From the IMG/VR virus record IMGVR_UViG_3300018405_000004: 49,225 bases of DNA, one strand, 5' to 3'. Below the pieces are notes generated by a model. That model ran no database searches. It worked only from the letters and a program-made list of their open reading frames with translations, and had not been told where the DNA came from. Below are positions 978 through 33,615 of this stretch, in pieces. Within the stretch, counting starts at the first letter, position 1; each line of letters opens with the position of its first letter. The translations under genes were made by a program, and so were the position numbers. The DNA comes from a virus.

Positions 978-1426
978 ACGCCATCCTTAATGTCGTAGTC
1001 GACGCTGTTTAGCATGTGTGATGTCTCAACAAGAGGCTTTGAGAATCCCTTTTTGGCGATAGTCACCGGGGATAGAGCGGGCTCCATCAGTTCTCGTATA
1101 GAGCCCTGCAACTGATCTTTGATGTGTTCCCCCATCATTCCAAGCATCGTATCGGCATCATATCCAGTGACCTCTGCAATCTTTGCCATATCTTTGGGCC
1201 ATGCTGGCGAGTTATCAGCGATCATGTTTCTGAAAAACGGGCGAGGCGGTCGGTTCATAGCAGGGTCACCGAATTCGTTAGCGGCGGCCACCATGGGAAC
1301 GGATGTTCCGTCTGGGTATGTTGCCCCCTCCAGAAACCCGACCCGTAGCGTTTTGCCATCGCCAATTTTCTCGGCAAGCTCAGCTAATTTCGCTTCTAGC
1401 GCAGATCCCCCACTGAAAGTAGTCAT
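974..1426 (-). CDS. HK97 gp10-like head-tail adaptor or tail-completion protein
   Basis: 150 aa. Motifs AANEFGDPAMNRPPRPFF and HMLNSV are typical of the gp10 family. Lies in the connector block. Confidence 0.65.
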   Translation of the reverse strand: MTTFSGGSALEAKLAELAEKIGDGKTLRVGFLEGATYPDGTSVPMVAAANEFGDPAMNRPPRPFFRNMIADNSPAWPKDMAKIAEVTGYDADTMLGMMGEHIKDQLQGSIRELMEPALSPVTIAKKGFSKPLVETSHMLNSVDYDIKDGV

Positions 1427-1428
1427 GG

Positions 1429-1872
1429 CTATCTCCGCCAGTTAGCGCGCCGGTAATAATGCCCTGGGTAATTGGATGGTGAAGCGCCGGGAACGTAGCG
1501 AGCGGTTCTGTATGCTGCCGTTGCCTGCCAGTAGGCAGCCCCATAAGGAGTTTGCAGGTACCACCACGAAGCGCCGCTTGATGGAACTTCGCCAAGTGAT
1601 ACAGATACAGAGCCTTCTGATGCGCTCGCTACGCGCCCAACTAACCCGGATGGTGCTTTCCCATTCACACCTGAATTCAGTGCTGCAAGGTGAGCAACCA
1701 GCATGTTGAGATAGACGGCCCTGATTGCAGGGTCCGCCACCGCGCTACAGTCTGTGTTATCAAGGTAAACCGTTGCCTCTACGAAATAAGCATTCAGCAA
1801 CGAGTCACTTACGGTGTCGAACTCCGGGTAACGTTCGCGGAATGCGGCAATATCAAAGACAACGATCGCCAT
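1429..1872 (-). CDS. DUF4054-like head-tail connector protein
   Basis: 147 aa. N-terminus [13 protein letters not shown]...YFVEATVYL is typical of DUF4054 / gp15-like connectors. Confidence 0.6.
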
Positions 1873-1874
1873 GA

Positions 1875-2201
1875 TTACTTCCCGTCAGATTTCTGGATTC
1901 CCGGCATCGGGTTATCTTGCGGAAGACCCTCAAGACCAGACTTGCGACCTGCGTTTTCGTTGGCCTTAGCCTCAGCGCTGTTCGGTTTAGCCTGGGCGAA
2001 GACGAGTTCGCTCTTCACATAGGCCTGGTCAGCATGAATATTCAGCCACTTGTCGAAGGCGTCTTTATCGACCCCCTCTGTCAGGCCGTAGCCGCCGATC
2101 ACATTTGAGGCGTTAGCGCCATTCAGAACGACGCTATAACCTTCCACTTCAAGCACAAGACCGTTCGGCAGCTTGCAGCCAACTACTACAACTTCAGCCA
2201 T
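1875..2201 (-). CDS. Hypothetical virion protein (108 aa)
   Basis: ORF immediately downstream of the capsid gene. No motif recognised. Confidence 0.5.
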
Positions 2202-2204
2202 GAG

Positions 2205-3239
2205 TTACACCCCTACCATTGTTGCGATTGCCAGAGGCTGGCGGATGATCGCGCCCCATGTGCCGCCGGATTTTTTCTGCTTCCAGGATGACTCTTCTGT
2301 CACCACGGCATGCGCACGCATCTTCTCGGTGAACGCAGCGTATGCTGTGTCCTGCTCGCCAAGGCGATCCGCGATCAGTTGAACCATCTCACCCGCAGTG
2401 GTCGAGTACTCGATCGCGGTTTCGATTTTCAGGTTCGGGAAGTTTTTCTTCAGCTGGTCAGAAACGTTCACGTTGTACATGTTCGTTTTAGCCAGATTTA
2501 CAGACATCGCCGGAGACATCGCCAGCGTCATGCTGTCTGCCATTTCCAGCAGACCTTTGGTCTGAGAAACCAGTTGACCGAACAGTTTGAGGATATCGTC
2601 GTAAACCGCCTGGCCGTCTTTGGTTGCCCAGGTCAGGCCGCCGCTTGTACCACTTGCGTTTGGCGCAATGGATGCAGGGAGACTCGGATCATTCAGCAGT
2701 CCATAGTTTTGCAGACCATCGATACCGTAGAAGTAGCTCTTATTCTGGAACTTGTTCAGCACCAGAGCGGAAGCTACGTTCAACTCAGACGCATAACCGA
2801 TACGCGCTGCACCGTACATATCCAACTCACGCTCACCCCAGCGGGTATGAGTCTGATAGTGGTAGGACTGGCGAGGAACCCAGTTAACGTTCGCAGCGGT
2901 CATGCCGTTGTTGTTGTAGTCGCCGTAGGAGCTAACTTCACCTGCGGATTCAACAACCGGGAATTGGGCGGTAAGAGTGGTCCAGTCACCCTTTTTAACT
3001 TCACCGATAATTTCGGCTGCCTTCATAGGCGTAACCAGAATGCGGATCAGTTCAGGGTCAACGAAGTTGGTGAAGAACGCTGGCACACCTGAGCTGCCAG
3101 TGGTAACCATCGTTGGCTGAGCATCCATCGCCAGCGCGAAGTTATCCGCAAATTCTGGCTTCAGGTATTCTTTAGCGCCCGGCAGAACAATGCCGTATTT
3201 GCCGCTCGCTGCGGCGTAGTGTTTCTGAAATTCGTTCAT
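2205..3239 (-). CDS. Major capsid protein (DUF2184-type)
   Basis: 344 aa. Size, position after the scaffold and decoration genes, and N-terminal pattern resemble DUF2184 capsid proteins that pair with DUF2213. Confidence 0.75.
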
Positions 3240-3721
3240 TACTTGCTCCAGGTGCTGATTTTAACGAGCTCGTTAGCGTCGCAAGCGCTACCCGCAAAGA
3301 ATGGCGTCTCAACAGCGCCGGAAATGGTCGCCCCTGCCGCACCGGTCTTCACGGTACCGTCTGCCAGCACCGCGAAGATTTTCTGACCGCGAGTAGCGGC
3401 GGTTGCGGTACGCGCCCAGAAGTCACCCGCAACCATCAGTGTGGTTTCGCGGCCCTTCTGAATAACGTTTGATGCAGCACCCAGCCAGTCGGTGATGACT
3501 GCCTGACCATCGCGATGGACGAAGCCAGAAGGTGCGCCGGTGCCGGTATTTGTTGCCACCCCATCGACTGCCCATGCAAAGCGCCCGATAGCCACACCGC
3601 CAGTACCTGCTACGAGAGCGGCCTCGCCAGCCAGGAATGTTGCGTGCGGGTTGGTGCTCGCAAAGCCACCTTCTACGCCGGGGGCTGGATATTGGTTAAT
3701 TACACTCTGAAAACCTGCCAT
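3239..3721 (-). CDS. Head decoration or cement-like protein (160 aa, Gly/Ala-rich)
   Basis: Lies between the scaffold and capsid genes and shares its stop/start base with the capsid gene. Function assigned by position. Confidence 0.45.
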
Positions 3722-3722
3722 G

Positions 3723-5510
3723 TTAGAAACCTCGTTTCAGTTTGCCAGCGGTAGGGAATGCCTTCTCGAAATCGCTGATGGATGCGGAATCCTGAGCCAG
3801 AGGGGCAGGACGTGAGTTTTCTTTCTGGCTGATTGCCATTTTCACCAGTGACGGGAACGCAGATGGGTGAACGCCTTTAATGTCTACGCCGGACTGCTCA
3901 AGTGCGGTGCGGTAGACATCAGCAGCTGAGTCCATTGCAACAACATCACCAATCAGTGGGCGCACAGCCTGTTCAGCTTCACGGACTTCCCGGAAGTTCT
4001 GAGCGGCCTTTTTGGTTGCGCTGTCAGCTGCTAAGCAGATCGCAGAGTCCATAGCCGTTTTGGAGACTTTGTCGTCTTTCTTGTCATCGTCTTCATCGTC
4101 TCCGTCATCGGCGGGCTTTTTCTTTTTGTCGCAGCAGTCGTCTTCGTCATCGGCGGGCTTGTCTTTCTTGTCTTCTTTTTCGGCTTCATCGAGAGCCAGA
4201 AGTGCTTTGCGTACTTCTGCTTCCAGATCCGCGTCTGCTGCCAGTAATGGCTTCAGCGTGGCGCGAATAGCCGCGGCTTTGCGTTTGCTCATGTGCTTTA
4301 ACTCCGGTGGTAAAGAATCTGCGACCAATACGTCGCTTCCTGCGCGGCCTGTTTCGACCAGCGCCACGTGGTTCCCGATAATGTCCCGCATGATGCCGTC
4401 ATAGACTTCACCAGTCGGGGTCGTGCCGGGGGTCATGTCAGCGACGTATTGGTACGACGAAGACAATTCTTCCTGTTCTTCCGTCTCGATACCGGCGATG
4501 GCTGAGTTATCCCACACGGAAAGACCGTTAGTGAGATACGTTCCATCAAATGCGGCGTTCGAGTGCGTTACACCAACACGGTTTTCGTGAGGCGGGTCGC
4601 CAGGGAAGTCAGGTGTATGGATTGAAAGGAGTGGAATGTTGTTGAATGTTGCTACGGCTTTCTTCAGCTCATCAGGGTGACGCCAGAGCCGGTATATCTT
4701 CTCCGGGTCGAGCCCTAACCTCTCAGCGCCGGGAATCTCTCGCCCGAAGTAAGGGCAGACGTTGGCCTTGCTGATATTACTGACCTTAACCTGAAGCCTG
4801 CCGTTGCCATCAAACGTGCGCACTGAGGCGCGGTCGAATGCTAGGCTTTCTGTAATCCCGTCCATTGCGGGTTTCTTTTCCTCGCTGACGTATCTGACCT
4901 TTATGGTCACTGGCTGCCCAGGAGATTTCGGTGGGTGTACACCGACAACCTCCATTTTTGCGTTTCGAGGAAGAAGGGTTTCATCTTCATGCTTGTTGCT
5001 GGAAAGTCCGGTGACATCGAGGCCTTTATCACCCGGCTTTGTTTCTATCTGAAGCATTACGCCGCCGATACCGAACATCCCGGCGATCTTTTTCTCTTTT
5101 GAAGTGGAAAGAAATGCAGGATCAGATACGACCATTCCTTTCTTGATATCTCCACCCGGAAATAACTTTTTGGCGTCTTCCCTGCTCATCCCTCGATAAA
5201 GAGTTTCGCCACCCAAACTTCCCTTGCTTATCGCTGAGTCAATTCTTGCTACATCTGGATCTGACTTCTCACCCACTCGCAATTGAGAGTTTATTTTTAA
5301 GAAGTTGTCGCCCGAGTAGCTTGATATTGCTGTTTTTTCGTTAGTAGATAACTTTGCTCCGGTTGATTTTTTTTCTTCTTTTTTGCTGGTTATCTTCCCT
5401 TCAGCGCCAGCTACAACATCTCCGCTTTCATCAACTTTGACATGTGAGCCTTTTATCGTGATCCACTTATCTTCGTCCTCGGCTAGCGAGTAGGATTCGA
5501 GTTCGTCCAT
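3723..5510 (-). CDS. ADP-ribosyltransferase domain fused to a DUF2213-type prohead scaffold/protease protein (595 aa)
   Basis: aa 57-208 carry [18 protein letters not shown] (R106), FLSTS (135-137) and HEDETLLPR (E175, E177), which together make the R-S-ExE signature. aa 216-420 ([22 protein letters not shown]) are DUF2213-like. An acidic D/E/K linker follows. The gene lies between the MuF and capsid genes. Confidence 0.75.
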
Positions 5511-5530
5511 AGACTTCCCCGCTTATGGCA

Positions 5531-5554
5531 ATAAAAAAGGCCGCCGTAGCGACC
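5531..5554 (-). terminator. Intrinsic terminator after the 63-aa membrane-protein gene
   Basis: On the minus strand: GGTCG-CTAC-GGCGGCC followed by TTTTTT. It shares the GTCGCTACGGCGGC core with the terminator at 24912-24934. Confidence 0.6.
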
Positions 5555-5574
5555 TGTTGTATATATTTTCTGGC

Positions 5575-5766
5575 TTACTCCATCTTGTGGGCTATATGCA
5601 GCCCCCATAAATAGATAACCAAGAACAACGCAGAGGATAATGACCACCAAATTGCATCTTCTGGCCACTTACGGATTGTTGTTGCAACAGATACTCCAAG
5701 GGCAGCACCCCAGTAACCGCCTTTGGTGTATGCCTTGGATAGAGTGTTGATAGCTTTCTTTTTCAT
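5575..5766 (-). CDS. Small membrane protein (63 aa, 2 predicted TM helices), moron-like
   Basis: Hydrophobic stretches GGYWGAALGVSVATTI and WWSLSSALFLVIYLWGL. AT-rich, with its own terminator. Confidence 0.6.
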   Translation of the reverse strand: MKKKAINTLSKAYTKGGYWGAALGVSVATTIRKWPEDAIWWSLSSALFLVIYLWGLHIAHKME

Positions 5767-5796
5767 ATTTAATCCGGGTTGATGAACATTTTTATG

Positions 5797-6639
5797 TTAT
5801 AACTTTTTATCCAGACCAGGGATAACAGGCGACCAAGTACAGCGGCAATTGATTTCCTCTCCTGGCATCACCCACTTGCCATCCAGATACATTCCCTTGT
5901 CGATATCGAACTTCTTGCCATCAGCTTTGACATGTGATGGTCGAGGTTCTTTACCAGCGTGAGAATGTCGCCAGATACCTTGCGTGATGCCAAGTGACTG
6001 CTGCCTTGTGGCTTGCATAACTGATGTCGCTTTGTTGTTCTGGTCACGAGCAATTAGAGCGGCACGTCGGCGGGTGATGCCGTAACGCTTCTGCAACTCA
6101 TCGGTGAGATATGACAGGTCACGACCTCGAGCCACAGAGCGCATCACAAGCCCTTCCACCTCGGTGAAATACTTCTCAGGGATGGAGCGTATCAATCCGA
6201 CGTTTTCGGCGATGGTAGCCTGAAGTGCGTTGTTCATCGGTGCGGTCATCTTGAACTCAACCGTGAAACCGGCAGTGTCGAGAGCGTTATGCAGTGACAC
6301 ATCAGAGTTCTTCATGGCATCTGAAGCGAACCGGTCAGAAAGCTTCTGCGCAATGCTGTCGAATGATTTCGTCCAGCGCTTAGCCAGTTTCTTCATTGCA
6401 TCACGCATAAACACGGCAGGAGATGCGTCCATTGCCACTGCTGCGCCGCTCGCTTTGTAGTTTGCGGTTAGCCAGTACACAACGGACTTTTGCATCTCTC
6501 TGACCTGTTTATCGAGTTGTTTTCGATACCAATCCTCAACACCTGCGTTAGGTCTTACCGGTGGTATCGTCTTCTGGCTCGTCGCTTTCGTCGATTTCTT
6601 CGTCGATTTCTTCATCGTCTTCTTCGAGGTCGATGTCAT
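5797..6639 (-). CDS. Head morphogenesis protein, MuF / SPP1 gp7 family
   Basis: 280 aa. C-terminal W..H....PRPSH..ADGK...PGEEINCRC motif; follows the portal gene. The start overlaps the portal 3' end by 92 nt. Confidence 0.8.
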
Positions 6640-8092
6640 CGCTTAGGTCCAGTGAGTGATAGGGTGATTCAGGGTCTTCGGCAATCTTTTCGCGAACTTC
6701 GTTGTTTGACAGCGCACCAGTCGCGACATACACCGCGTCAGTGTCTGCATCGATTTTCCGAATCTCCGCTTTATCCTTCGCGCTCATCTCGTAGAGAGGT
6801 TCGAATTCGAAATAGATTTCAGGGTCGATGTCGCCAAACTCGGATAGCTGAATGATGTCCAGAACGCGCTTCAGAGCAGTAGAGAAGATTGACTGCTGCA
6901 ACGAATGGATGTAGTCGTAGAAAACGCGAATCTCCCCGTCTGATGACGCATTCAGCCCGGCAGGAGCAATGCCCAGCAGCTTAACAAGTGGGATGCTTGA
7001 TACGGCTGCCATTTGCTCTTGCGCCTGAGCCTGAAGTACGTCGAGAGTGCCCAGTGGCGCGTTAACAAACTCAACCGTTTCCGGCTGCGTTGGGTCGTTG
7101 TCTGTAGCGAATGCGCCACGGTTATCACGACATTGGTTGAATAACTGCAGGCGGGTGATCAGCGACTCTGCACCACCACCTTGTAGGATGGTGCTCATGT
7201 TGGTACCGATGACCGGTACGCTAAAAGAGTGAATCATGTCGCTTACACTGTCACGGGTACGCAGCCAGTTATTCACGTATGGCTCGGCAATCTGAACCAG
7301 AGACAGACCACGGAAGTTATACGAGGCCTTCAGCAGGTCAGGAACCTGACGCGATACGAAATCAATCATGCGGCTGGCATGAACCGTCTTGCCCATCACA
7401 AACCACTGAGTCGGTTTGTAGAAGTCAGGGCTTAGAGGGTTCTGAGCGTTGTAGATGCCCGGATACGTCCATACCGGCTCGATAACCTGAAATCCCTTGA
7501 GGCTACCTTTGGCTATCTTCTTGTCGCTCAGGAATAACTTCGATTGCAGTTCGGTGTCATCAGTCCAGGCAGAGACGTTTTTGGGTGACGTGACATCGAT
7601 ATAAATCTGGCCGCCGCCGAAGTAGCCGTCATGCTCTGCTGCTTCACGGAACTTGTCACGAACGTGGAACCTGTCGAGTGCGTCGTTAAGCTTTTTAACG
7701 CGATCTGATTTATCCTCATCACCGACTGTCTTCAGCTTGATCCACTTGCGCGTCATCTCCTCGGCGATAGTGCCTACCATCTTCCGGTATTCAGGCTTTT
7801 GGGCCATCATTGCCAGATAGGGATAGCCGGGGAAGCTGTCGAGATTGCCGTAAGCATATCCAGCGCTGTATGCGTCGTTCAGCGCTCCGTAATCGCATGA
7901 GTCCATCGCGAGATAGGCGTTATGGAGATTTTCAGGGATAACCCCCTTTGGCGGCTCGTATCGCTTAAACTCTCTCGGCGGCTTAGCCTGAATCTCAGCG
8001 ACAGCCATCGGGTTAATTTTCATCTGAACCTTTTCAGGTTCTTTCACCGGCTCAGGCGCGGCGATTTCTTTCTTCCACCATTTCCACCGCAC
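6548..8092 (-). CDS. Portal protein (DUF1073-type)
   Basis: 514 aa, immediately downstream of TerL, with an acidic C-terminal tail. Confidence 0.8.
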
Positions 8093-9769
8093 TTAAATTC
8101 TCCTGAGTTGACTTGGGTCGATCACCATTGGCTGGCGACCGGAAATAAGGTTGTCATCGATGGCGTCCATCCAGGTATCGAGGATGTCGTCATTGTCGTG
8201 GCTGTCATCGGCAGAGAACGCCGCGCACTCGGTCATTGCAGTCAGCACCCAGGAGGTCGTCCCGGCGATGGTTCCGTCCTCGTAATAGGTGTGCATAATC
8301 GCCGCACCATCTTGCGTGTGCGTTGCGGGGACGTAGACCTTGCCGGTCTTAATCTGAGGGATGACGTTGAGGCAGCGAACCAGTTTGTTCTGGCCCGCAC
8401 CGCGTGGAATCTCTTTAACAGGGATAGCGATCTGACCAGGTGTTGCACTGCGTTTCTTCAGGGTGGTAATCAGCCCTTGCCCAGCCTGTTTCTCTTCGAT
8501 AGCCATATGGCGCATCGGCATGATTCGCATTGAACCCTGCATACGCCATTTCTCCCAGACTTCTTCTGCTTTCTTCAGAAGGTCCTCGGGGTCCCAGCGG
8601 CCACGAACCACATCGATGACGTAGAGGTTGCCATCCACACCCATGCCAACCAGAGTGAATACGGTGTAGTCAAGCCAGTCCTCAACCTTGCCACTGTTCG
8701 TATCAACGTATACGGCGCGGTGAGTCAGCTTAGGAAGCGTGGTGTAGGTCTGGAACCATCCGGTGTCGATAATGCCGCCGGTGAGCGCCATTGGGTTTTG
8801 CTGGTACTGAGACAGGAAGGTGTAACGGTCTTTCTCCCACAATTGCAGGAGGTCGTTCACGTCTTCCATCTGAGGCCAGTACGACCAGTAGCGTGTGCCA
8901 GACACTTCGACATAATCGGTGTCTTTAACCGTCTCCCGGCACAGCGAGCGCCACGGCTCTGCGAGAGACTCAATGTATTTCTCATCAATCATCGCCGGGA
9001 TAGCGACGTGATGGAATTTGACGCCCATGCCGCCACTCAGCATAAAGCCGGTTGCGTCGTCAGTGTGCAGGCGCTGCTGAATGCTTACGAATGGCGTTGG
9101 ATGCTCTTTGGACTTATCACCACGACGGGAGCGGATTGTGTTCACCAGGAGCGTGTTAGCGCTGTTCCTGCGTGACTCGCTCAGCATATCAACGGGCTTG
9201 TTGTAGTCATCCAGCATAACCATGCCGGAGAACTCAGGTCCGAAGTAACCACCACGGCCACCGGTAATCTGCCCGTTACTGGAGCGGGATACCGTCTGAC
9301 CGATTGAGCGACCGCGATCGTCTTTAATCTCCCACTCTTCAGCCTGGTTAACACCAAAGGAGCAAGGCCAGAACTCCTGATACTCACGACTGGCGATAAT
9401 GTCTCTGGTGCGGCGCGAGTTACGCTTAACCAGCGTGTCAGCAAATGAGATGTTCAGGTTACGGAAGCGCTTTAATCTCCCTTCCTGCACCAGTGAATTG
9501 ACGTATGCGGGGAAGTGGATGGAGAAGAACTCCGTCTTTGTGCCGCCAGGGGGGATGTTGATAATCAGGTTGCCTGGCTCTAACCTCCCGGCGATCAGGT
9601 CATCAATCTTCGACGCCATCAGGCGGTGATGCCAGTTAACCAGCAGCCGATCACCCTGAATCAGTTCGAACCACACTCGGGTAAAGTTGAGAAACGACTT
9701 GGTGGACTTTGAACGAATGATGACGCGCTCAGGGAATGACAAGTCATCCCATTCGATGATTTCGTTCAT
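8093..9769 (-). CDS. Terminase large subunit
   Basis: 558 aa. N-terminal ATPase (PPGGTKTE, MVMLDD) and C-terminal nuclease pattern (YVDTN..YTVFTLVG..LYVIDV.RGRW). Confidence 0.85.
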   Translation of the reverse strand: MNEIIEWDDLSFPERVIIRSKSTKSFLNFTRVWFELIQGDRLLVNWHHRLMASKIDDLIAGRLEPGNLIINIPPGGTKTEFFSIHFPAYVNSLVQEGRLKRFRNLNISFADTLVKRNSRRTRDIIASREYQEFWPCSFGVNQAEEWEIKDDRGRSIGQTVSRSSNGQITGGRGGYFGPEFSGMVMLDDYNKPVDMLSESRRNSANTLLVNTIRSRRGDKSKEHPTPFVSIQQRLHTDDATGFMLSGGMGVKFHHVAIPAMIDEKYIESLAEPWRSLCRETVKDTDYVEVSGTRYWSYWPQMEDVNDLLQLWEKDRYTFLSQYQQNPMALTGGIIDTGWFQTYTTLPKLTHRAVYVDTNSGKVEDWLDYTVFTLVGMGVDGNLYVIDVVRGRWDPEDLLKKAEEVWEKWRMQGSMRIMPMRHMAIEEKQAGQGLITTLKKRSATPGQIAIPVKEIPRGAGQNKLVRCLNVIPQIKTGKVYVPATHTQDGAAIMHTYYEDGTIAGTTSWVLTAMTECAAFSADDSHDNDDILDTWMDAIDDNLISGRQPMVIDPSQLRRI

Positions 9770-12388: not shown

Positions 12389-12463
12389 TGGTGCCGGGCA
12401 AAGGAATCGAACCTCTGACGCATTGCTTACAAGGCAATCGTTCTGCCACTGAACTAGACCGGC
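12389..12463 (-). tRNA. tRNA-Thr (anticodon UGU)
   Basis: Cloverleaf read by eye. Anticodon arm ATTGC-CTTGTAA-GCAAT and T-arm AGAGG-TTCGATT-CCTTT; the 3' CCA is encoded. One U-C mismatch in the acceptor stem. Confidence 0.75.
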
Positions 12464-12467
12464 TTAT

Positions 12468-12544
12468 TGGTGGGCCATAAAGGATTCGAACCTTCTGCCA
12501 TTCCCTTATGAGGGGACCGCTCATACCAAATGAGCTTCTGGCCC
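12468..12544 (-). tRNA. tRNA with CAU anticodon (Met, or Ile2 if lysidine-modified)
   Basis: Anticodon arm TCCC-CTCATAA-GGGA, T-arm GAAGG-TTCGAAT-CCTTT, acceptor GGGCCA/TGGCCC; CCA is encoded. Confidence 0.7.
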
Positions 12545-12550
12545 GGAATT

Positions 12551-12625
12551 TGGAGCATCTGGCGGGGATCGAACCCGCATATTCTGGGTGGAAGCCAGAC
12601 GTAATTACCAAACTACGACAGATGC
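12551..12625 (-). tRNA. tRNA-Gly (anticodon UCC)
   Basis: Perfect acceptor GCATCTG/CAGATGC, anticodon arm TCTGG-CTTCCAC-CCAGA, T-arm GCGGG-TTCGATC-CCCGC; CCA is encoded. Confidence 0.85.
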
Positions 12626-17000: not shown

Positions 17001-17291
17001 TTATTGAACAGGGCGGCCGCACCACGATTTATCGTCGTGAAGCTCTTTACAGCGAAGCCAGATACAGTCGTAAACGAATGGGATGAAAGCCCTGAAGAAC
17101 TCTTCCCATTGCGATGGCCGGAAGCCAGTTACTTCGTCTACCATCGCCTCAATCGGCGTTCTGCGAACCGGGGGGCGTGTTACACCATAAAGCCGCTCGA
17201 AGTTTTCGATAAGCTCCTGCTCTTCCAGGCAGGTATCGAGCACCGCTGCGAATCGTGGGTTGGTGAGAAGTAAAAGCACTTGCTTTTTCAT
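17001..17291 (-). CDS. Hypothetical protein (96 aa)
   Basis: ATG at 17291 forms an ATGA overlap with the DnaB stop. The longer track start at 17351 is rejected. Confidence 0.55.
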
Positions 17292-19681
17292 ACGTCTGCA
17301 CCTTTTGAATACCGCTTGCCCTTCGCTGGCTGATGACCTGTAGATGTGCAAATCCCCCTCGCCTCATCCTGATCGCAATCCATAAAGTGACCATTAACGA
17401 AGCGCTGATAAACGGTACCCAGCGAGCCGAAACGGTTTTTAGTCACGATGATTTCTGCGAATTTTGCCGCCAGGCTGTTCTCGTCATACACCGCCTCGCG
17501 GTAGAGCATGATGATTGAGTCGGCGTCCTGCTCGATGCTGCCAGAGTCGCGAAGGTCTCCGTTGGTGGGGCGTTTGTTGGGTCGTTTCTCAACTTCGCGT
17601 GATAGCTGGCTCAGTGAGATGACCGGGGTTTTTAGGTCTTTCGCCATTCCCTTTAGGCTGCCAGAGATATGCGCGATAGCCAGGTCATTGCGATCGGCTT
17701 TCGGTTTCTCAATCAGGCCCAGGTAATCGACCATGATTAGCGACAGTTGCGGATGCGACTGCTTGTGCCGTTCTGCCACCGCGCGGATCTGCTCGACAGT
17801 CAGCTTTGACGCATCAACCAGCCAGACATCCAGGTCCTGCAACCGGGCAATGCCATTCGATACCCTGGCCCAGCCTTCATCGTCCATGCGCGCCGGGTTA
17901 CGTAGTACGCTAACCGACATGTTCCCGGCCCCGGCAATGCTTCGCTCGGCAATCTGAAGTTTGCTCATCTCCATGCTGAAAATCAGCACACCGCGCCTCG
18001 TGTTACTGCCGGGTATCATCCGGCTCGCAACGCCCTCAGCAATTTTCAGCGCCAGTTCCGTATTGTGCGTAACGATGTAATCCGTTGTCACATAGAGATG
18101 GCTAGGATGACTCACCATAATGCAGAGACATTCTTCTGGCTCAACCGCTTCCACCGATTTGATTCCCACACCAAGGTCGCCAAGCCTGTTAATGCCAAGG
18201 TTTTTGCGTAAACGTGGTGAGTGAATTTGCTCTATTACAGATGAAGGCAACTTCATGCTGACCATATACGCATCAAGCCCTTTAAGCTTTTCTCCTTTGT
18301 ACGTGTAAACTATTCCCGTCCTGCTGGATTCTTTTGCGGTTCCACCCAGAGATCTAACAAGCTTTATTAATCCTTTAGCTAATTTCTGGCTGGATGAACT
18401 AAAGCGGATGCATCCAAACTTCTCTATCCAACCGTCGGTTTCAAGAAGGCCAGTTAAAACACCGGTACGTATTTCTTTATTAGCACTAAATATTTCTGCT
18501 GGGATTTCCTTCTCGGAAGCTCCTTTCCCAATTAACCCAAGACCACGCAGTTTGTCCAATAATGGGTTCTTTTGCCCTTTTTGATTGCTGATCAGATAAT
18601 CATTTTCTCCTACCTTAACCAGTCGTAGTGGTGCAATTGCATGGGTCATGCGGTTCAGGACGTATTCTTCTGAGTTGGTGAATTTGACGCCATTTATCAA
18701 CGAGCCATCACCAAGGAGAGCCCCTATAACCCAACCATCAAGGGGTATATTCCCACCAAAGTCTCCGGTAACTGCTGGAACTCTTATTCTTCCCTGATAG
18801 CGTGTTTTTTGTAGCATCCCAGCAAGAGCATCAGTATCAACAACACGTTTACCCGTAAATTTTGATGATGAAATTTCCCATAAGTGGTTGTCGGCACATT
18901 TCACGCTGCGTCCATCTTCAAAGGTAACTAAGTAGGTGAATTTCTTTCCTTGCGGGAACACTCCTATTACCTCAGAAGGAGCCCCATCTATTGACGCGAT
19001 GCGATCGCCAATTTTGATTTCACCGTGAGTTGTCCAAATGCCATCTGCAAGCAAAATCCCTTCATTCAGTGCCATTGCTTTACCCATACCAGGCCGGGCG
19101 GCGATAATCACCAGGTCTTCGGCGTTCATTCCTCCGGTGATGGCGTCCAGGTCGTCAATGCCGGTCTTCATCGTGTCGGATTCTTCGCCGTTGGTCAGGC
19201 GCTTCTCCAGGGTGTCGGTGTAGTCCGTCAGCAGGTCGCCAAGGCGTACTGGCTGAATCTCATGCTTAGGCTTCCTGATGACGCTCAGACGCTTTGTCAG
19301 CTCGTCCATTGCCTGCGATGACTGGTCCAGCGTTCCGTTGCTGATAGGCCCGCGCATTTCGTCCAACAGTTGCAATACCAGGCGACGCTCGTAGGAGTCC
19401 GTTACCATCCCGGCGTAGCCTTTCAGGTTAGCGGCGCTCGGGCAGGATTTAGCGGTCTCCATGATGTCCGCGAAATGCCCGTCACCGCATTCCTCGGCAA
19501 CCATCAGGCCATCAATCAGGTTTCGCACTGCGGCTTGTTTCTGGATGACGCGATAGGCTGTCTGGTATAGCGGGATGGAAAATGCTTCTGGCGGTACGGT
19601 TGCGAGAACTTCACTGGCTGCCGGTGTCAGGCCGCCAATCAGCAGGCCGCCGATAACGCTGGCTTCGATATCCTGTCTCAT
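17288..19681 (-). CDS. dnaB: Replicative DnaB-type helicase (P22 gp12 analogue) interrupted by an intein
   Basis: N-terminal DnaB domain. Walker A ARPGMGK is split from [10 protein letters not shown] by 339 aa. Downstream RecA-like motifs IMVDYLGL and SLSQLSR. Confidence 0.9.
18062..19078 (-). mobile_element. Intein (339 aa, Ala202-Asn540) with a LAGLIDADG homing-endonuclease domain; class-3-like
   Basis: Excising A202-N540 restores GMGK|T. Block [13 protein letters not shown] (H266, W268). LAGLIDADG motifs [12 protein letters not shown] and [11 protein letters not shown]. Block F CLCIMV (C520). Block G IVTHN|T. The region is AT-rich by eye. Confidence 0.8.
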
Positions 19682-20802
19682 TGAAGCCCCTTATCAGCAA
19701 ATTTAGCCTCACGAACACCAAGCAGTGTTTTATCGCGTAACAGGTAGTCGATGTCCGCCGCCCAGCCTGTGTCGTTTTGACCGAAGTAAAATGGTTTAGC
19801 CTGAGCGACAAACGCTTTCACGTATGCTCTCCAGCCTTCAACGTTTGGGGTCTTGAGTTGCGGTATGAGTTTCTTAAGGCGGCGCTTGCGGGTGTCATTC
19901 AGCGCAACGGCATGAGGTAATAACTCGCCGACCTCTTCGTTGTAAGCCTGAATGAATGCCTGGTAGTCAGTGCGATCTGCTTTTCGCTTTTCAGGTTTAG
20001 AAACCTGCGCATCTTCCCCCTCTGGGGGTAAGGGGGTATTTGTCTTTATTGTCTTTTGTATATTGTCTTTTGTGTGTACCTCACGCTGTAAATCGTGATT
20101 TACTGACGGTGTGACACTATCTGTCACATACGGTGTAAAACTTTCCATGACGGCGTTAATCTTATTTACCGCCTGAGTTACGGTAGTCCCGAACATCTCT
20201 CCATGAATCATCTGCCCTTTCATCGCTTCGTGGACTAATGGTTCGATAGCGCCTGCTTGCAGATGGAATGGCGAAATATAAAAGACTTGAGGATTATTAC
20301 CTTCGAAGTAGTACTTAACTTCTTTCAGTCTTTCTTCCGCATCCCGCGTGGTGAAACCGACTTTAACTGGTCCGAACTCATCTTCCGCAAAAACGTAAAT
20401 GTAACCAGCCTTATGCTTGGTAGAGCCATACTCCCTGCGACGCTCTGGACGCTCTACGCACCAATCAGAAAACACCTTGTTAATGCCAACCTTTCTACCC
20501 TCAGTGATCAACACATTCATGTTCAACAACTCTGTTTTAGTAGAGCTGCACCTGGTTCTTGGCATCCCGGTCATTTCTGACAATTGCTCGCCACTTATCC
20601 AGTCAAACTTCTTGTTGAATCCGTATGTTTTGCGGATTACAGCTAGCAGGAGTTTCATCTGCCGAACAGTGAAGTTGTTAGACATAATGGCATCGAGCAA
20701 ATCATTGGCGATGCGCGTATAGCCATCTTCAATGTCTGCCACCTGTCGCTCCATTGCCTCTTGTTGAGGCTTACGATAATCAGCTAACTTAACGACGCCC
20801 AT
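19678..20802 (-). CDS. Replication initiator (lambda O / P22 gp18-like) with an inserted T5orf172/GIY-YIG-like domain
   Basis: AGGAGG SD before the ATG at 20802. N-terminus [12 protein letters not shown]...[15 protein letters not shown] is Phage_rep_O-like. The middle segment GYIYVF..VKVGFT..R...H is T5orf172-like. C-terminus [11 protein letters not shown]. Confidence 0.8.
20016..20140. repeat. Candidate origin (ori) repeat cluster inside the initiator gene
   Basis: CCCCCTCTGGGGG palindrome followed by GGGGG; three copies of TTGTCTTT(T) at a 10-14 bp period; GTAAATC-GT-GATTTAC palindrome; ACGGTGT x2 flanking GTGACA-N5-TGTCAC. Confidence 0.45.
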
Positions 20803-20953
20803 GCCTACCTCCTGATGCGACAATTGCCAGCCGGATAACACCAATCAGACGTTCTGCGAACGCCCGGTTTTTAGAGGCTGCAACGACTAATCCATCAGGT
20901 GAATCAGGGTGCTCCCGCTCTTCTGCGGGAGTTTGTTTCTTGCGATTTTTCAT
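20789..20953 (-). CDS. Hypothetical basic 54-aa protein
   Basis: GGGGG SD before the ATG at 20953. The 3' end overlaps the initiator start by 14 nt. Confidence 0.4.
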   Translation of the reverse strand: MKNRKKQTPAEEREHPDSPDGLVVAASKNRAFAERLIGVIRLAIVASGGRHGRR

Positions 20954-22209: not shown

Positions 22210-22215
22210 GAAGTG

Positions 22216-22926
22216 ATGGAAAATAAAAAGACCCTGACGGCAGAACAGCTTAGAGACGCAGAGCGACTTAAGGCTTTGTATGAGTCAAAAAAGAAAGATT
22301 TAAAAATCACTCAATACACAATCGCCGACGCGCTTGGCATATCGCAGGGCGCTGTGGGTCATTACATGAATGGTCGCATTGCTCTGAATGTTCCGGCGTT
22401 AACCTCTCTGGCGAAAATACTTAACGTCAGCCCAGCGGAGATAAGCCCGTCACTGGCTAAAGAAATTGGTGAGTACGCAAGGTCTATCGATGCGAACGTC
22501 TCAGGCTTTACGCCTTATACAAAAGGTGTTAGCTATCCGGTGCTGAGCAAGGTTCAGGCAGGTGCGTGGGCGGAAGCCGTTGAAGCGTACACCTTGAAGG
22601 ATATAGACCTCTGGCTTGAGTCTGATGCTCACATCCAAGGGGATGCGTTCTGGCTTGAAGTGGAAGGCGATTCGATGACCGCGCCGATGGGGTTGAGCAT
22701 ACCAGAAGGCACGTTTGTGCTTTTCGATACCGGTCGTGATGCATGCAATGGCAACCTGGTCGTAGCCAAGCTGCAAGATGACAACGAAGCGACGTTCAAG
22801 AAACTGATAATCGATGGCAGTCAGCGCTATCTGAAGGGGCTGAACCCGCAGTGGCCGCTGGTTTCAATCAATGGCAACTGCACGATTATTGGCGTGGCTG
22901 TAGAGACGAAGCTGCGGCTGCTGTAG
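22216..22926 (+). CDS. cI: CI repressor (HTH plus S24/LexA-type autocleavage domain)
   Basis: Lambda CI-like length and layout. HTH ITQYTIADALGISQGAVGHYMNG. C-terminal S24 domain (GDSM...LVVAKL..ATFKKL). A GTG at 22213 is an alternative start. Confidence 0.9.
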   Translation: MENKKTLTAEQLRDAERLKALYESKKKDLKITQYTIADALGISQGAVGHYMNGRIALNVPALTSLAKILNVSPAEISPSLAKEIGEYARSIDANVSGFTPYTKGVSYPVLSKVQAGAWAEAVEAYTLKDIDLWLESDAHIQGDAFWLEVEGDSMTAPMGLSIPEGTFVLFDTGRDACNGNLVVAKLQDDNEATFKKLIIDGSQRYLKGLNPQWPLVSINGNCTIIGVAVETKLRLL

Positions 22927-32239: not shown

Positions 32240-32575
32240 ATGGTTTCAGAAAAGCCCCTCACCGCGCAGCAGGCGGCGGAACTCCTGATCGTCTCGCCAA
32301 GAACCATCTACCGGCTTATCGACTCCGGAGAGCTTGCAGGTAAAAAGGTTGGCAACAAATATCGGACCACCGACGAAGCCTGTATTGCGTATTTGAATAA
32401 CCCGCGTGATCCTGTTGCTGCGAGCGCGGGTGAGCATAAAGGAGATAACCTATGTCCATCACCCTCAGAGGCGGCGTATGGCACTGTCATTTCGTTACAC
32501 CGTCAGGGAAAAGAGTTAGACAGTCTCTTGGTACGGGGGACAAGAAGCAGGCTCAGGAGCTGCACGACAAGCTGA
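32240..32575 (+). CDS. xis: Excisionase (MerR-type HTH excisionase family)
   Basis: [36 protein letters not shown]. The frame runs 124 nt into int. Confidence 0.65.
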
Positions 32576-33615
32576 AGTCTGATGCATGGAGAGTGGATAA
32601 GATCGGGGAGCTTCCAGCGCGCACATTCGAAGAGTGCTGCATACGCTGGATAAAGGAAAAGGAGCACAAGCGATCACTGGATGATGACAGGGCGAAGATT
32701 GAATATTTCCTTCGTCATTTCTCCGGTCGTGACATTTCCACTATAACGGCTGAACAGGTTCACGAGGCAGTATCCAGGATGGTTAACCGCAAGCATATTC
32801 AGGTGTGGGAGTCTCGCAGGGATGCGGCGATCAGGAGAGGGAAAGAACCACCGCCGTATGCAGATAAACCGGTAAGCCTGGCAACGAAGAGCCAGCACCT
32901 GTCATTCATGCGGTCACTGCTGAAGGCGGCAACCAACGACTGGGGATGGATAAAGTCTCACCCCGCCATCAAGGTAAGGAAGCCGGTAAGCAAGAGGATT
33001 CGATGGTTAACCAGGGATGAGGCTGAACGCCTGATTGATTGTATGCCCGAGAGCATAAAGCAGGTGGTGATTTTCGCACTGGCAACCGGCCTGCGCCGCT
33101 CCAACATTATTGGTCTGGAGTGGCAGCAGGTCGATATGCAGAGAAAGGTTGCATGGGTAAACCCAGAGAACGCGAAGGCGGGCAAAGCTATCGGCGTGGC
33201 TCTGAATGATACCGCATGCAGGGTTTTGCGTGGGCAGATCGGGAAACACTCGCGATTCGTTTTTGTTCACACCAAAGCAAAGCATCGCCCTGATGGAACA
33301 CTGACCCCGGAAGTCAGGAAAATGCGGGTTGACGACAATAACGCCTGGTACGCCGGGTTAAAGAAAGCCGGCATTGATGATTTCCGGTTTCACGACCTGA
33401 GACATACCTGGGCAAGTTGGCTAATCCAGTCAGGTGTTCCACTTTCTGTTTTGCAGGAAATGGGCGGCTGGGAGTCGATAGAAATGGTGCGTCGTTATGC
33501 TCACCTGGCACCAAACCATTTGACCGAGCACGCACGGAAAATTGACGCCATTTTTGGCAGTCATGACACAAATACGACACAAGGAGAAAATCAGGCAGGA
33601 TTAAAACTAGCGTAA
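32452..33615 (+). CDS. int: Tyrosine integrase
   Basis: 387 aa. AGGAG SD. Catalytic-region motifs [30 protein letters not shown]. Confidence 0.9.

Follow-up and report, generated by a model that had tools for sequence, protein, structure and literature searches.

An ADP-ribosyltransferase domain fused to the N-terminus of a DUF2213 scaffold-type head protein: a candidate head-packaged effector of a temperate phage

ADP-ribosyltransferases (ARTs) that travel in the phage head have been described on several carriers. Alt of phage T4 is a separate protein, recruited by a short N-terminal capsid-targeting sequence that is cut by the gp21 protease (PMC5512222). Among the MuF toxins, 14% are ARTs (Jamet 2017, PMC5576092); VIP2-MuF fusions are present in Microbacterium phages, which are actinophages (PMC7302621), and the EFV toxin is grouped among the known MuF-ART/portal-ART-type fusions. 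Iyer 2022 (PMC9503650) reported Alt/VIP2 ARTs that are packaged in the head on MuF or the portal, as well as Nudix domains attached to the peptidase that processes the capsid. PMC5512222 places assemblin-like peptidases at the C-termini of polyvalent proteins and does not count Alt/VIP2-type ARTs among the domains of genuine polyvalent proteins. In phage P1, the inner face of the capsid bears 55 DarA-Hdf pairs, which are missing from heads emptied of DNA (PMC12810830). Here we analysed a stretch of viral DNA of 49,225 nt (IMG/VR record IMGVR_UViG_3300018405_000004), referred to as the window, in which a head gene (3723-5510, minus strand) encodes an ART fused to the N-terminus of a DUF2213 scaffold-type protein. 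We propose that this fusion packages the ART in the head, that the ART is ejected with the DNA, and that it ADP-ribosylates proteins of the next host. We assign this reading a probability of about 0.55.

The fusion gene is an open reading frame (ORF) of 595 aa with an ATG start, and its exact sequence was found on 4 contigs in public collections. The original prediction had described a bipartite protein. Pfam analysis placed both the ART and the DUF2213 parts far beyond chance. The protein has five parts rather than two, with boundaries drawn from AlphaFold2 models and from the positions of residues and motifs. These are an N-terminal leader (aa 1-50; 5361-5510), an ART domain of the R-S-ExE type (aa 51-212; 4875-5360), a DUF2213/Pa193_gp24 N-terminal domain (aa 216-410; 4281-4865), two predicted helices followed by an acidic K/D/E low-complexity linker (aa 411-482; 4065-4280), and a C-terminal helical scaffold-like region with the stop codon (aa 483-595; 3723-4064). 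All of them lie on the minus strand, as do the motifs given below. The leader has an acidic start followed by a conserved motif of 25 residues. It is predicted to be disordered, with a predicted local distance difference test score (pLDDT) below 50 for residues 1-4 and 11-50 in the AlphaFold2 (AF2) model.

The ART assignment was supported by sequence profiles, by alignment of the active site and by the predicted structure. Pfam matched ADPrib_exo_Tox (PF03496) at aa 45-193 with 60.1 bits (cut-off 23.4; E=2.5e-16) and, more weakly, the ART family at aa 102-191 (E=9e-6). In PHROG, the N-terminus matched the ART part of the MuF-ART family phrog_595, and PHROG 802 'Alt-like' matched aa 40-151 alone (E=1.4e-7). 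A PDB sequence search with the ART retrieved ExoT, ExoS, Vis, Vip2, HopU1, Tre1-like PAAR toxins and SpvB; no matching chain of T4 Alt was found in this search. The catalytic Arg106 of LYRG (codon 5193-5195) aligned with the FRG arginine of ExoS. The STS motif, Ser135-Thr136-Ser137 (5100-5108), aligned with that of ExoT, ExoS and Vis, and the ExE motif of the ARTT loop, Glu175-Asp176-Glu177 (4980-4988), aligned with E-x-E of ExoT. In the deposited ExoS chain two alanines lie opposite the ExE glutamates, which we take to be a mutated ExE. Arg106, STS and ExE occurred in the expected order and were invariant across 13 fusion homologues; the E-x-E was also conserved in four further database entries (P0004-P0006 and P0008). 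The motif positions in the original prediction were all exact: a 14-residue motif at aa 65-78, LYRG at 104-107 with R106, FLSTS at 133-137, HEDETLLPR at 174-182, and Met216.

Structure prediction, which the original prediction had set beforehand as a check on this region, returned an ART fold. The AF2 model of residues 51-210 had a pLDDT of 75-91. Foldseek gave 116 matches in the PDB at E<=0.001, and the 50 listed matches were all ART toxins, led by the Listeria ART effector 8za7_B (4e-11), Plx2a, Certhrax, C2-I, ExoS, C3bot, iota/CDTa, Vip2 and Vis. The E-values of 8za7_B, Plx2a, Certhrax, C2-I, ExoS, C3bot and Vis were 4e-11 to 1e-9. Pfam, the AF2 model and Foldseek thus agreed, and the catalytic residues were intact. 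By profile, active site and predicted structure, the N-terminal module is an R-S-E ART, very probably with an active fold. The ExE form of the ARTT motif suggests, from what is known of the family, that the acceptors are arginines.

The window ART is similar to T4 Alt in belonging to the same clade (ADPrib_exo_Tox, with a partial match to PHROG 802), in its R-S-ExE site and in being encoded among late/structural genes; it is also predicted to travel in the head and to act at the start of the next infection. It differs in being covalently part of a scaffold protein and in having a different, longer leader of 50 aa. The two phages also differ: that of the window is a temperate enterobacterial phage, with lambdoid regulation and a head of the E217/Pa193 type, and is not T4-like.

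The carrier belongs to the DUF2213 family. Pfam matched DUF2213 at aa 231-399 with E=6e-45 (153.6 bits against a cut-off of 22), and newer Pfam releases name this family (PF09979) 'Pa193_gp24'. A profile of eight DUF2213 domains, which are down to 17% identical, hit gp24 of phage Pa193 (PDB 9b40_G) at residues 4-173 (E=6.6e-15). A PDB sequence search with a single DUF2213 protein did not find this match; the profile alone did. The columns H/G/S/G/H/A were invariant in the alignment of the eight domains. Three of these residues, His298, Ser350 and His381 of the window protein, are also present in Pa193 gp24. Experimental work has given the family one label, 'putative scaffolding protein'. Liquid chromatography-mass spectrometry of mature virions detected Pa193 gp24, and its residues 286-326 form a pentameric helix-turn-helix under each five-fold vertex; whether the rest of gp24 is cleaved or merely disordered could not be told by the authors (PMC11456595). 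The window protein resembles Pa193 gp24 (PDB 9B40) in its homologous DUF2213 domain, in its gene position and in the order of a globular N-terminal domain and a helical C-terminal half. Pa193 gp24 differs in having 478 aa and no ART, and its helix-turn-helix has no detectable sequence match in the window protein.

In the C-terminal half, AF2 predicted helices at aa 408-425 and 430-447 with low confidence, and helices in aa 483-595 with a pLDDT of 60-75. The C-terminal region was conserved equally in ART-less and ART-bearing alleles. The region between (aa 411-482) varied in length among homologues, and its aa 440-482 contain D17 E5 K11. In the window this acidic linker (4065-4190, minus strand, aa 440-482) is 10-24 residues shorter than in sister alleles (595 versus 605-619 aa in total), and an odd Cys-Cys pair lies within a 12-residue stretch of it, where the sister alleles have acidic or Ser residues.

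The graft point was located by comparison with alleles that lack the ART. Megablast matched the module to counterparts from E. coli prophages and from Klebsiella phages, which were about 920 bp shorter. The stand-alone DUF2213 proteins of E. coli 1506 (395 aa, 87% identical) and of Klebsiella phage RCIP0114 (389 aa, 80%) are encoded directly after MuF, and ART-less proteins start within one residue of Met216 (codon 4863-4865), with MKTTERLAFDR opposite Met216 and the 11 residues given with it in the window protein. The ART-less Lelliottia allele (P0010), which is 95% identical in the DUF2213 part, also starts at Met216 +/- one residue. The spacer between MuF and DUF2213 in the ART-less E. coli allele is just 12 nt. 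These results indicate that the graft took the place of a short spacer between MuF and DUF2213, and that the former start codon survives as an internal Met. The original prediction was borne out on this point: the DUF2213 part begins where stand-alone homologues begin. The survey of homologues that it proposed found both classes, with and without the extension, with the junction at the same place.

Met216 is therefore the fusion junction, the ancestral start of the stand-alone gene and a possible internal start. Internal initiation there might yield ART-free scaffold and lower the internal load; the Shine-Dalgarno spacing is poor, with GAGGAA 12-14 nt upstream.

At the 5' boundary of the ART cassette (5511-5560, minus strand), the terminator scan detected a terminator-like hairpin (5538-5555) with a 7-bp stem and a T-run, followed by the ribosome-binding site GGGGAAG. 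The hairpin thus interrupts the late head operon midway, and the ART start follows directly downstream. The last ~50 nt before the ART start were nearly invariant in four ART-bearing loci (the window, L007, L009 and L010), and the hairpin and ribosome-binding site were absent from the ART-less E. coli allele; this stretch therefore belongs to the cassette. In the sister loci, 62-63 nt separate MuF from the ART start. The cassette thus consists of the hairpin, the ribosome-binding site, the leader and the ART. The hairpin may be left over from a moron terminator, may stabilise the RNA, or may act as an attenuator that is read through under Q antitermination.

The ART part is compositionally foreign. 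The GC content was 0.42-0.46 across 4950-5850 and 0.52-0.56 in the flanks. The ART-coding part had a GC of 0.457 and a GC at third codon positions (GC3) of 0.449, compared with 0.540 and 0.574 for the rest of the gene, and three sister loci showed the same contrast. The original prediction had noted by eye that the ART-coding part and the adjoining 63-aa gene are AT-richer than their neighbours, and these values agree with it (ART GC3 of 0.45 versus 0.57). It had gone on to suggest late acquisition, which the comparative data contradicted. We calculated the ratio of nonsynonymous to synonymous substitution rates (dN/dS) by the Nei-Gojobori method for the window and three sister loci (L007, with a protein named for Yersinia enterocolitica, and one locus each from Hafnia and Klebsiella), which gave six pairs. 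For the ART, dN/dS was 0.02-0.08 in all six, with dS reaching 1.4-2.9, up to saturation; the leader gave 0.08-0.16, a sign of constraint despite its predicted disorder, and DUF2213 gave 0.03-0.08. The low GC of the ART persisted in all four lineages. Diverged phages of the Yersinia, Hafnia and Klebsiella types have the fusion in common, with dS up to saturation and low dN/dS. These comparisons indicate an old cassette, long maintained under purifying selection as a functional part of the protein. Recent horizontal acquisition was rejected on the same values.

The fusion recurs widely. We surveyed the 120 best DUF2213 clusters from a set of 5.8 billion proteins and found the same ART in 13 of them, with sequences from Yersinia enterocolitica, Hafnia alvei and Klebsiella pneumoniae/michiganensis. 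These 13 fusions were 88-95% identical to the window protein over the full length, had the same junction, and were annotated solely as 'DUF2213 domain-containing protein'. The fusion gene family is thus already in public databases, unremarked. The distribution of the ART was patchy with respect to carrier similarity, with the 95%-identical Lelliottia allele lacking the ART and 83-88%-identical Klebsiella alleles carrying it, which points to cassette exchange by recombination. A scan of IMG/VR detected 41 loci with a related ART. ART-DUF2213 fusions made up 31 of them, including a clade that is 70-72% identical; five were portal-ART proteins, four were stand-alone, and one (L055) was a 31%-identical match in a truncated ORF of ~1,200 aa.

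To what proteins related ARTs are attached was determined by an exhaustive HMMER search of 1.84 billion representatives, which gave 1539 hits, 170 of them at E<=1e-10. The best 150 of the 1539 hits were typed for architecture by Pfam and local phmmer. The closest relatives among these 150 (45-59% identity) were almost all head-module proteins. They comprised portal-ART (P0131, P0133, P0139, P0144, P0147, P0150 and P0151), ART-MuF (P0136 and P0269), ART-DUF2213 (P0132 and P0143), ART-NUDIX-DUF2213 (P0141, P0135 and P0146), ART-NUDIX (P0134) and DUF2213-ART (P0205) proteins, an ART between a DUF2213-like domain and a scaffold-like tail (P0137), and stand-alone ARTs of ~215 aa (P0004-P0006 and P0130). 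Several ART database entries were truncated fragments (P0002, P0003 and P0007). Remoter matches included giant proteins with up to nine ART stretches. By these architectures, the ART subfamily is a mobile head-cargo module.

Among 50,697 deposited phage genomes, the sole close relatives of the ART were in four Pseudomonas syringae phages (Orisa/Orimi), as portal-ART proteins annotated 'hypothetical protein'. In Orisa03 (PP179327.1, L059 2270-4381), the ART (54% identity) is at the C-terminus of a 703-aa protein, whose gene closely follows that of the large terminase, separated from it by a 56-aa ORF; this is consistent with portal-ART fusions.

A second enzyme was observed in a Klebsiella prophage (L010, Logan ERR7472287), in which a 648-aa portal protein (1194-3140) carries an Acb1 domain (Pfam PF23474). 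We take this domain to be the anti-CBASS phosphodiesterase. The portal-Acb1 gene shares its head module with an ART-DUF2213 gene, so that two enzymes are attached to two internal head proteins of one phage. The interior of this capsid type is evidently put to use as a place for enzymes.

The published carriers closest to that of the window are MuF and portal proteins, and the idea is the same, an effector that enters the capsid as part of an internal head protein. As in the MuF toxins, the window fusion is encoded by a temperate phage. The carrier differs, being a DUF2213/Pa193_gp24 scaffold, with MuF encoded as a separate gene of 232-280 aa upstream (5797-6639). The effector is N-terminal and not C-terminal as in the MuF polymorphic toxins, and no candidate immunity gene was found. 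On both counts, the carrier and the orientation, the original prediction held. The expected copy number also differs, being scaffold-like (tens or more) for the window fusion and a few for MuF.

Another parallel is found in the Nudix fusions of the capsid-processing peptidase (PMC9503650), in which, as in the window, the effector comes first and the peptidase or scaffold follows. The ART-NUDIX-DUF2213 relatives would match these fusions if DUF2213 is that peptidase. The polyvalent proteins (Iyer 2017) are different, since the window protein has a single effector and a structural part; the ART-NUDIX relatives or those with nine ART stretches would qualify. Dar of phage P1 is similar as a cargo inside the capsid shell that is present in full heads, gone from emptied heads and active against host defence, but its proteins are unrelated, their attachment is non-covalent and they include no ART. 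The available parts of PMC9503650 and PMC5512222 do not name DUF2213 and describe no ART on a DUF2213 carrier. The strategy and the enzyme clade are thus already known, and the carrier, the N-terminal orientation and probably the stoichiometry are different. The novelty seen in the original prediction holds for the carrier and not for the strategy, as head-packaged ARTs on MuF and portal proteins had been published (PMC9503650).

Ahead of the ART, nearly every close relative has one of two conserved and interchangeable leader peptides. The window has type A, D/E-x-[RK]-W-[IV]-T-[IV]...G-x-H-[VI]-x-[IVL]...G-x-G-G-K-F-x-G; its own form is a 14-residue stretch followed by x-x-G-x-V-x-x-G-x-x-G-K. 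Type A also precedes the ART of P0130, P0142 (twice), P0176, P0236, P0265, P0269 and P0252. Type B is very sharp, D-x-[ED]-[FW]-x-E-[SGA]-D-H-P-R-x3-G-[KQE]-F-G-S-G-G-G, and was found in 33 places, in most of which it lies upstream of the ART, at a median of ~20 residues. Its carriers include P0004-P0006, P0131-P0146, P0150, P0155, L003 8079 and L059 3848. It is also located between the modules of head proteins with several domains; P0141 and P0150 have two copies each, which in P0150 flank the ART. Stand-alone ARTs keep a conserved leader as well. A leader-profile search of the large protein set returned solely fragments of 37-84 aa, which lack domain context, and neither motif was found in the available part of the polyvalent-protein paper PMC5512222.

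T4-type prohead proteases cut at hydrophobic-x-Glu sites. The [FW]-x-E-[SGA] of type B resembles such sites. It is conceivable, although we would bet against it, that the ART travels as a self-contained head-cargo cassette in which the leader serves E217/Pa193-type capsids as a general tag for addressing or processing. The leader could be the site at which a DUF2213 His/Ser/His enzyme frees the cargo in the head, or a peptide that docks the cargo to the scaffold.

The type A motif (WITV...G.HV.I...GGKF.G) was also observed at the head of two small ORFs in Pa193_gp24-type head modules (L056 5001-5246 and L058 5001-5213), and Pfam did not identify the ORFs adjoining them. In L056, a 492-aa ORF (5200-6678) overlaps the leader ORF in another frame, which may be a frameshift or a miscall, and the second gene after it encodes a ddrB-ParB polyvalent-protein domain.

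From these data, we propose the following course of events. The fusion protein would be made late in infection, and its C-terminal scaffold part would co-assemble with the capsid protein and so bring the ART inside the procapsid. The ART would then stay tethered under the shell, or be clipped off, perhaps by DUF2213 itself with its invariant His/Ser/His. In the next infection, it would leave the head with the DNA and ADP-ribosylate host proteins, probably on arginine. Acting before phage gene expression, it would favour takeover of the host or blunt host defence, like T4 Alt. Packaging and ejection are suggested by three findings: the closest relatives of the ART are fused to portal, MuF and DUF2213 proteins, Pa193 gp24 is found in mature virions under the five-fold vertices, and the sister Klebsiella prophage has Acb1 on the portal in the same module. 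The persistence of Pa193 gp24 in virions is so far the best evidence that cargo on this carrier would end inside the virion. We regard incorporation of the ART into procapsids as quite likely, and its ejection and action in a new host as evenly balanced.

Several points weigh against this course of events. A scaffold is normally expelled or degraded before DNA packaging, and the cargo could go with it. A 24-kDa domain on every scaffold copy could mean a large internal load. The counterpart of the gp24 helix-turn-helix was not found when aa 398-458 were used in a PDB sequence search, and the AF2 model of aa 216-595, built on an alignment of 13 sequences, was too poor for reading a fold (pLDDT 48; predicted template modelling score 0.28). 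The scaffold fusion was present in none of the 50,697 deposited phage genomes, and thus in no deposited genome of a cultured phage, and the ART-coding DNA had no match in 5,426 complete E. coli genomes.

The protease, on which release of the cargo might depend, adds to these points. In hhalign, the DUF2213 profile matched Mu gpI and HK97 gp4, used as single-sequence templates, with a probability of 0.2%. Pfam at E<=10 on four diverse DUF2213 domains gave DUF2213 only and no protease family. The label 'head maturation protease' comes from PHROGs, for the C-terminal two-thirds, and from depositor annotation. In its favour, His298, Ser350 and His381 are invariant, no other protease candidate was found between the portal and capsid genes, and the layout of an N-terminal globular and a C-terminal scaffold part recalls Mu gpI/Z. 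DUF2213 is a candidate maturation protease. The name 'prohead scaffold/protease' given in the original prediction is supported for the scaffold, through the DUF2213/Pa193_gp24 family, and unproven for the protease.

The first alternative is that the ART acts solely in the cell that produces it. Fusion to the scaffold would then be a means of strong late expression, and the ART would be cut off or expelled and never reach the next host; it would modify host proteins, or block abortive-infection or superinfecting elements, during assembly. This alternative is the hardest to set aside, because most phage scaffolds leave the procapsid before or during packaging. The invariant His/Ser/His of DUF2213 could remove the cargo. 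T4 ModA and ModB are ARTs that act unpackaged (PMC5512222), and PMC9503650 raises the possibility that head-module ARTs counter immunity aimed at the packaging apparatus. However, the ART is found repeatedly on portal C-termini and on MuF, which are stable, low-copy parts of the virion and fit poorly with a role in expression alone. Pa193 gp24 persists in mature virions, and the stand-alone ARTs keep the conserved leader, as expected of a targeting or processing signal. We consider action confined to the producing cell unlikely, but the most serious of the alternatives to delivery into the next host.

A second alternative follows the MuF polymorphic toxins, which are proposed to act as killing toxins (PMC5576092). 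Virions released by lysogens would kill competing non-lysogens, and an immunity protein would protect the lysogens. The temperate nature of the phage, which has an integrase (32452-33615) and an S24/HTH CI-like repressor (22213-22926), is compatible with such a role, the share of ARTs among MuF toxins provides a precedent, and the best structural match, Listeria 8za7_B, comes with an ARH immunity partner. In the window, however, MuF has its own gene and the ART forms the N-terminal part of a different protein, the downstream gene encodes a cement protein and not a small immunity ORF, and the sole small neighbour, a 63-aa ORF, is missing in the fusions of the Yersinia, Hafnia and Klebsiella types. 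In none of the loci was a macro, ARH or NADAR domain found beside the gene, and the five locus types have no immunity gene. An enzyme that kills on injection would also block lysogeny or replication. These points make a killing function improbable, and they render doubtful the word 'toxin' in the original prediction, as the phage is temperate and no immunity gene adjoins the ART in any locus.

A third alternative is that the ART modifies parts of the phage itself, either arginines of the capsid or scaffold or the packaged DNA, for head assembly or genome protection. Some R-S-E ARTs, such as pierisin and Scabin, modify DNA. An ART tethered to the scaffold would be near the inner surface of the capsid, and the scaffold-capsid contacts of Pa193 involve Arg and Lys salt bridges (PMC11456595). 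This is nevertheless very improbable: 95%-identical alleles that lack the ART build the same head module, which indicates that the enzyme is dispensable for assembly; the ART is also found on portals, on MuF and as a stand-alone protein in unrelated head types; and no similarity to DNA-modifying ART clades was found among the top Foldseek matches. Finally, an assembly or frameshift artefact, or a decaying pseudogene remnant without function, might be suspected in a metagenomic contig when several ART database entries are truncated, but it is refuted by the comparative data, to the point of a negligible chance, since the same frame and junction occur in dozens of independent isolate genomes and viral contigs, dN/dS is 0.02-0.08 and the catalytic residues are all invariant.

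The 63-aa ORF (5575-5766, minus strand) lies between MuF and the hairpin as a separate insert. By eye it has two hydrophobic stretches, and it is possibly a small membrane protein. It had no Pfam or PHROG match and was not found in the 50,697 phage records; searches for related loci in genome contigs and viral contigs confirmed none. At 90% identity it belongs to a 10-member cluster that includes Yersinia enterocolitica and Citrobacter youngae. It was absent between MuF and the ART in L004 and L007-L010. A role as an immunity or chaperone partner of the ART was rejected, as four sister fusion types have no such ORF. It looks like an independent, moron-like insert that is specific to the window among the fusion loci compared. 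The original prediction had grouped it with the ART part, to which it does not belong: the sister fusions have the cassette and not the ORF.

The other genes of the head module are all on the minus strand, in the order large terminase (8093-9769), portal (Phage_portal_3; 6548-8092, Pfam E=1e-93), MuF, 63-aa ORF, fusion gene, cement protein and major capsid protein (2205-3239, PHROG 264, E=3e-88). MuF is an SPP1 gp7-type minor head protein (5797-6639, Pfam PF04233, E=7e-15). Its longest ORF, of 280 aa, overlaps the portal gene by 92 nt and has a K/S/T-rich N-terminal stretch that is missing in homologues of 229 and 232 aa; the gene call in a twin contig is 232 aa. By these comparisons, the true start is probably Met49 (nt 6495). 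The cement or minor capsid protein, immediately downstream of the fusion gene, has 160 aa and is of the E217 gp24/XM1 gp53 type (3239-3721, Pfam PF23982 and PF22758). The DUF2213 gene is located between MuF and the cement/capsid genes in the window and in L001, L002, L007-L010 and L056.

The window also encodes lambda-type O, DnaB and NinG proteins and a DUF3383 protein (Pfam E217_gp31_N), which is presumably the tail sheath. The DnaB-type helicase (17288-19681, minus strand, 797 aa) has a weak LAGLIDADG homing-endonuclease match between its N- and C-terminal DnaB domains (E=2.4e-4, below the Pfam cut-off), which suggests an intein. The lambda O-type initiator (19678-20844, minus strand) has an extra T5orf172 domain at aa 147-229. 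Three adjoining tRNA genes, Thr(TGT), Met(CAT) and Gly(TCC) (12389-12625, minus strand), lie near the lysis/late-regulation region.

Phage proteins that are injected act before phage gene expression and are prime candidates for counter-defence and takeover of the host; few have been studied outside T4, P1, N4 and P22. The fusion family described here occurs in prophages of clinically relevant Enterobacterales, namely Klebsiella, Yersinia and Hafnia. Its carrier has a homologue, Pa193 gp24, with a known place under the capsid vertices, and the natural ART-less alleles, with a carrier that is 87-95% identical, offer a nearly isogenic comparison for the role of a head-delivered ART and for the host system that it acts against. 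The Orisa/Orimi phages have been cultured and may serve as an experimental system for portal-delivered ART. If the leader is a tag of the kind tentatively proposed above, any enzyme could be loaded into E217/Pa193-type capsids by adding it, and phage genomes could be mined with it for injected effectors. A single ART subfamily has changed places among the portal, MuF and the scaffold protein, in the last case at either end. This modular placement supports the view that the capsid interior is a general, modular delivery compartment and suggests a route to engineered cargo loading.

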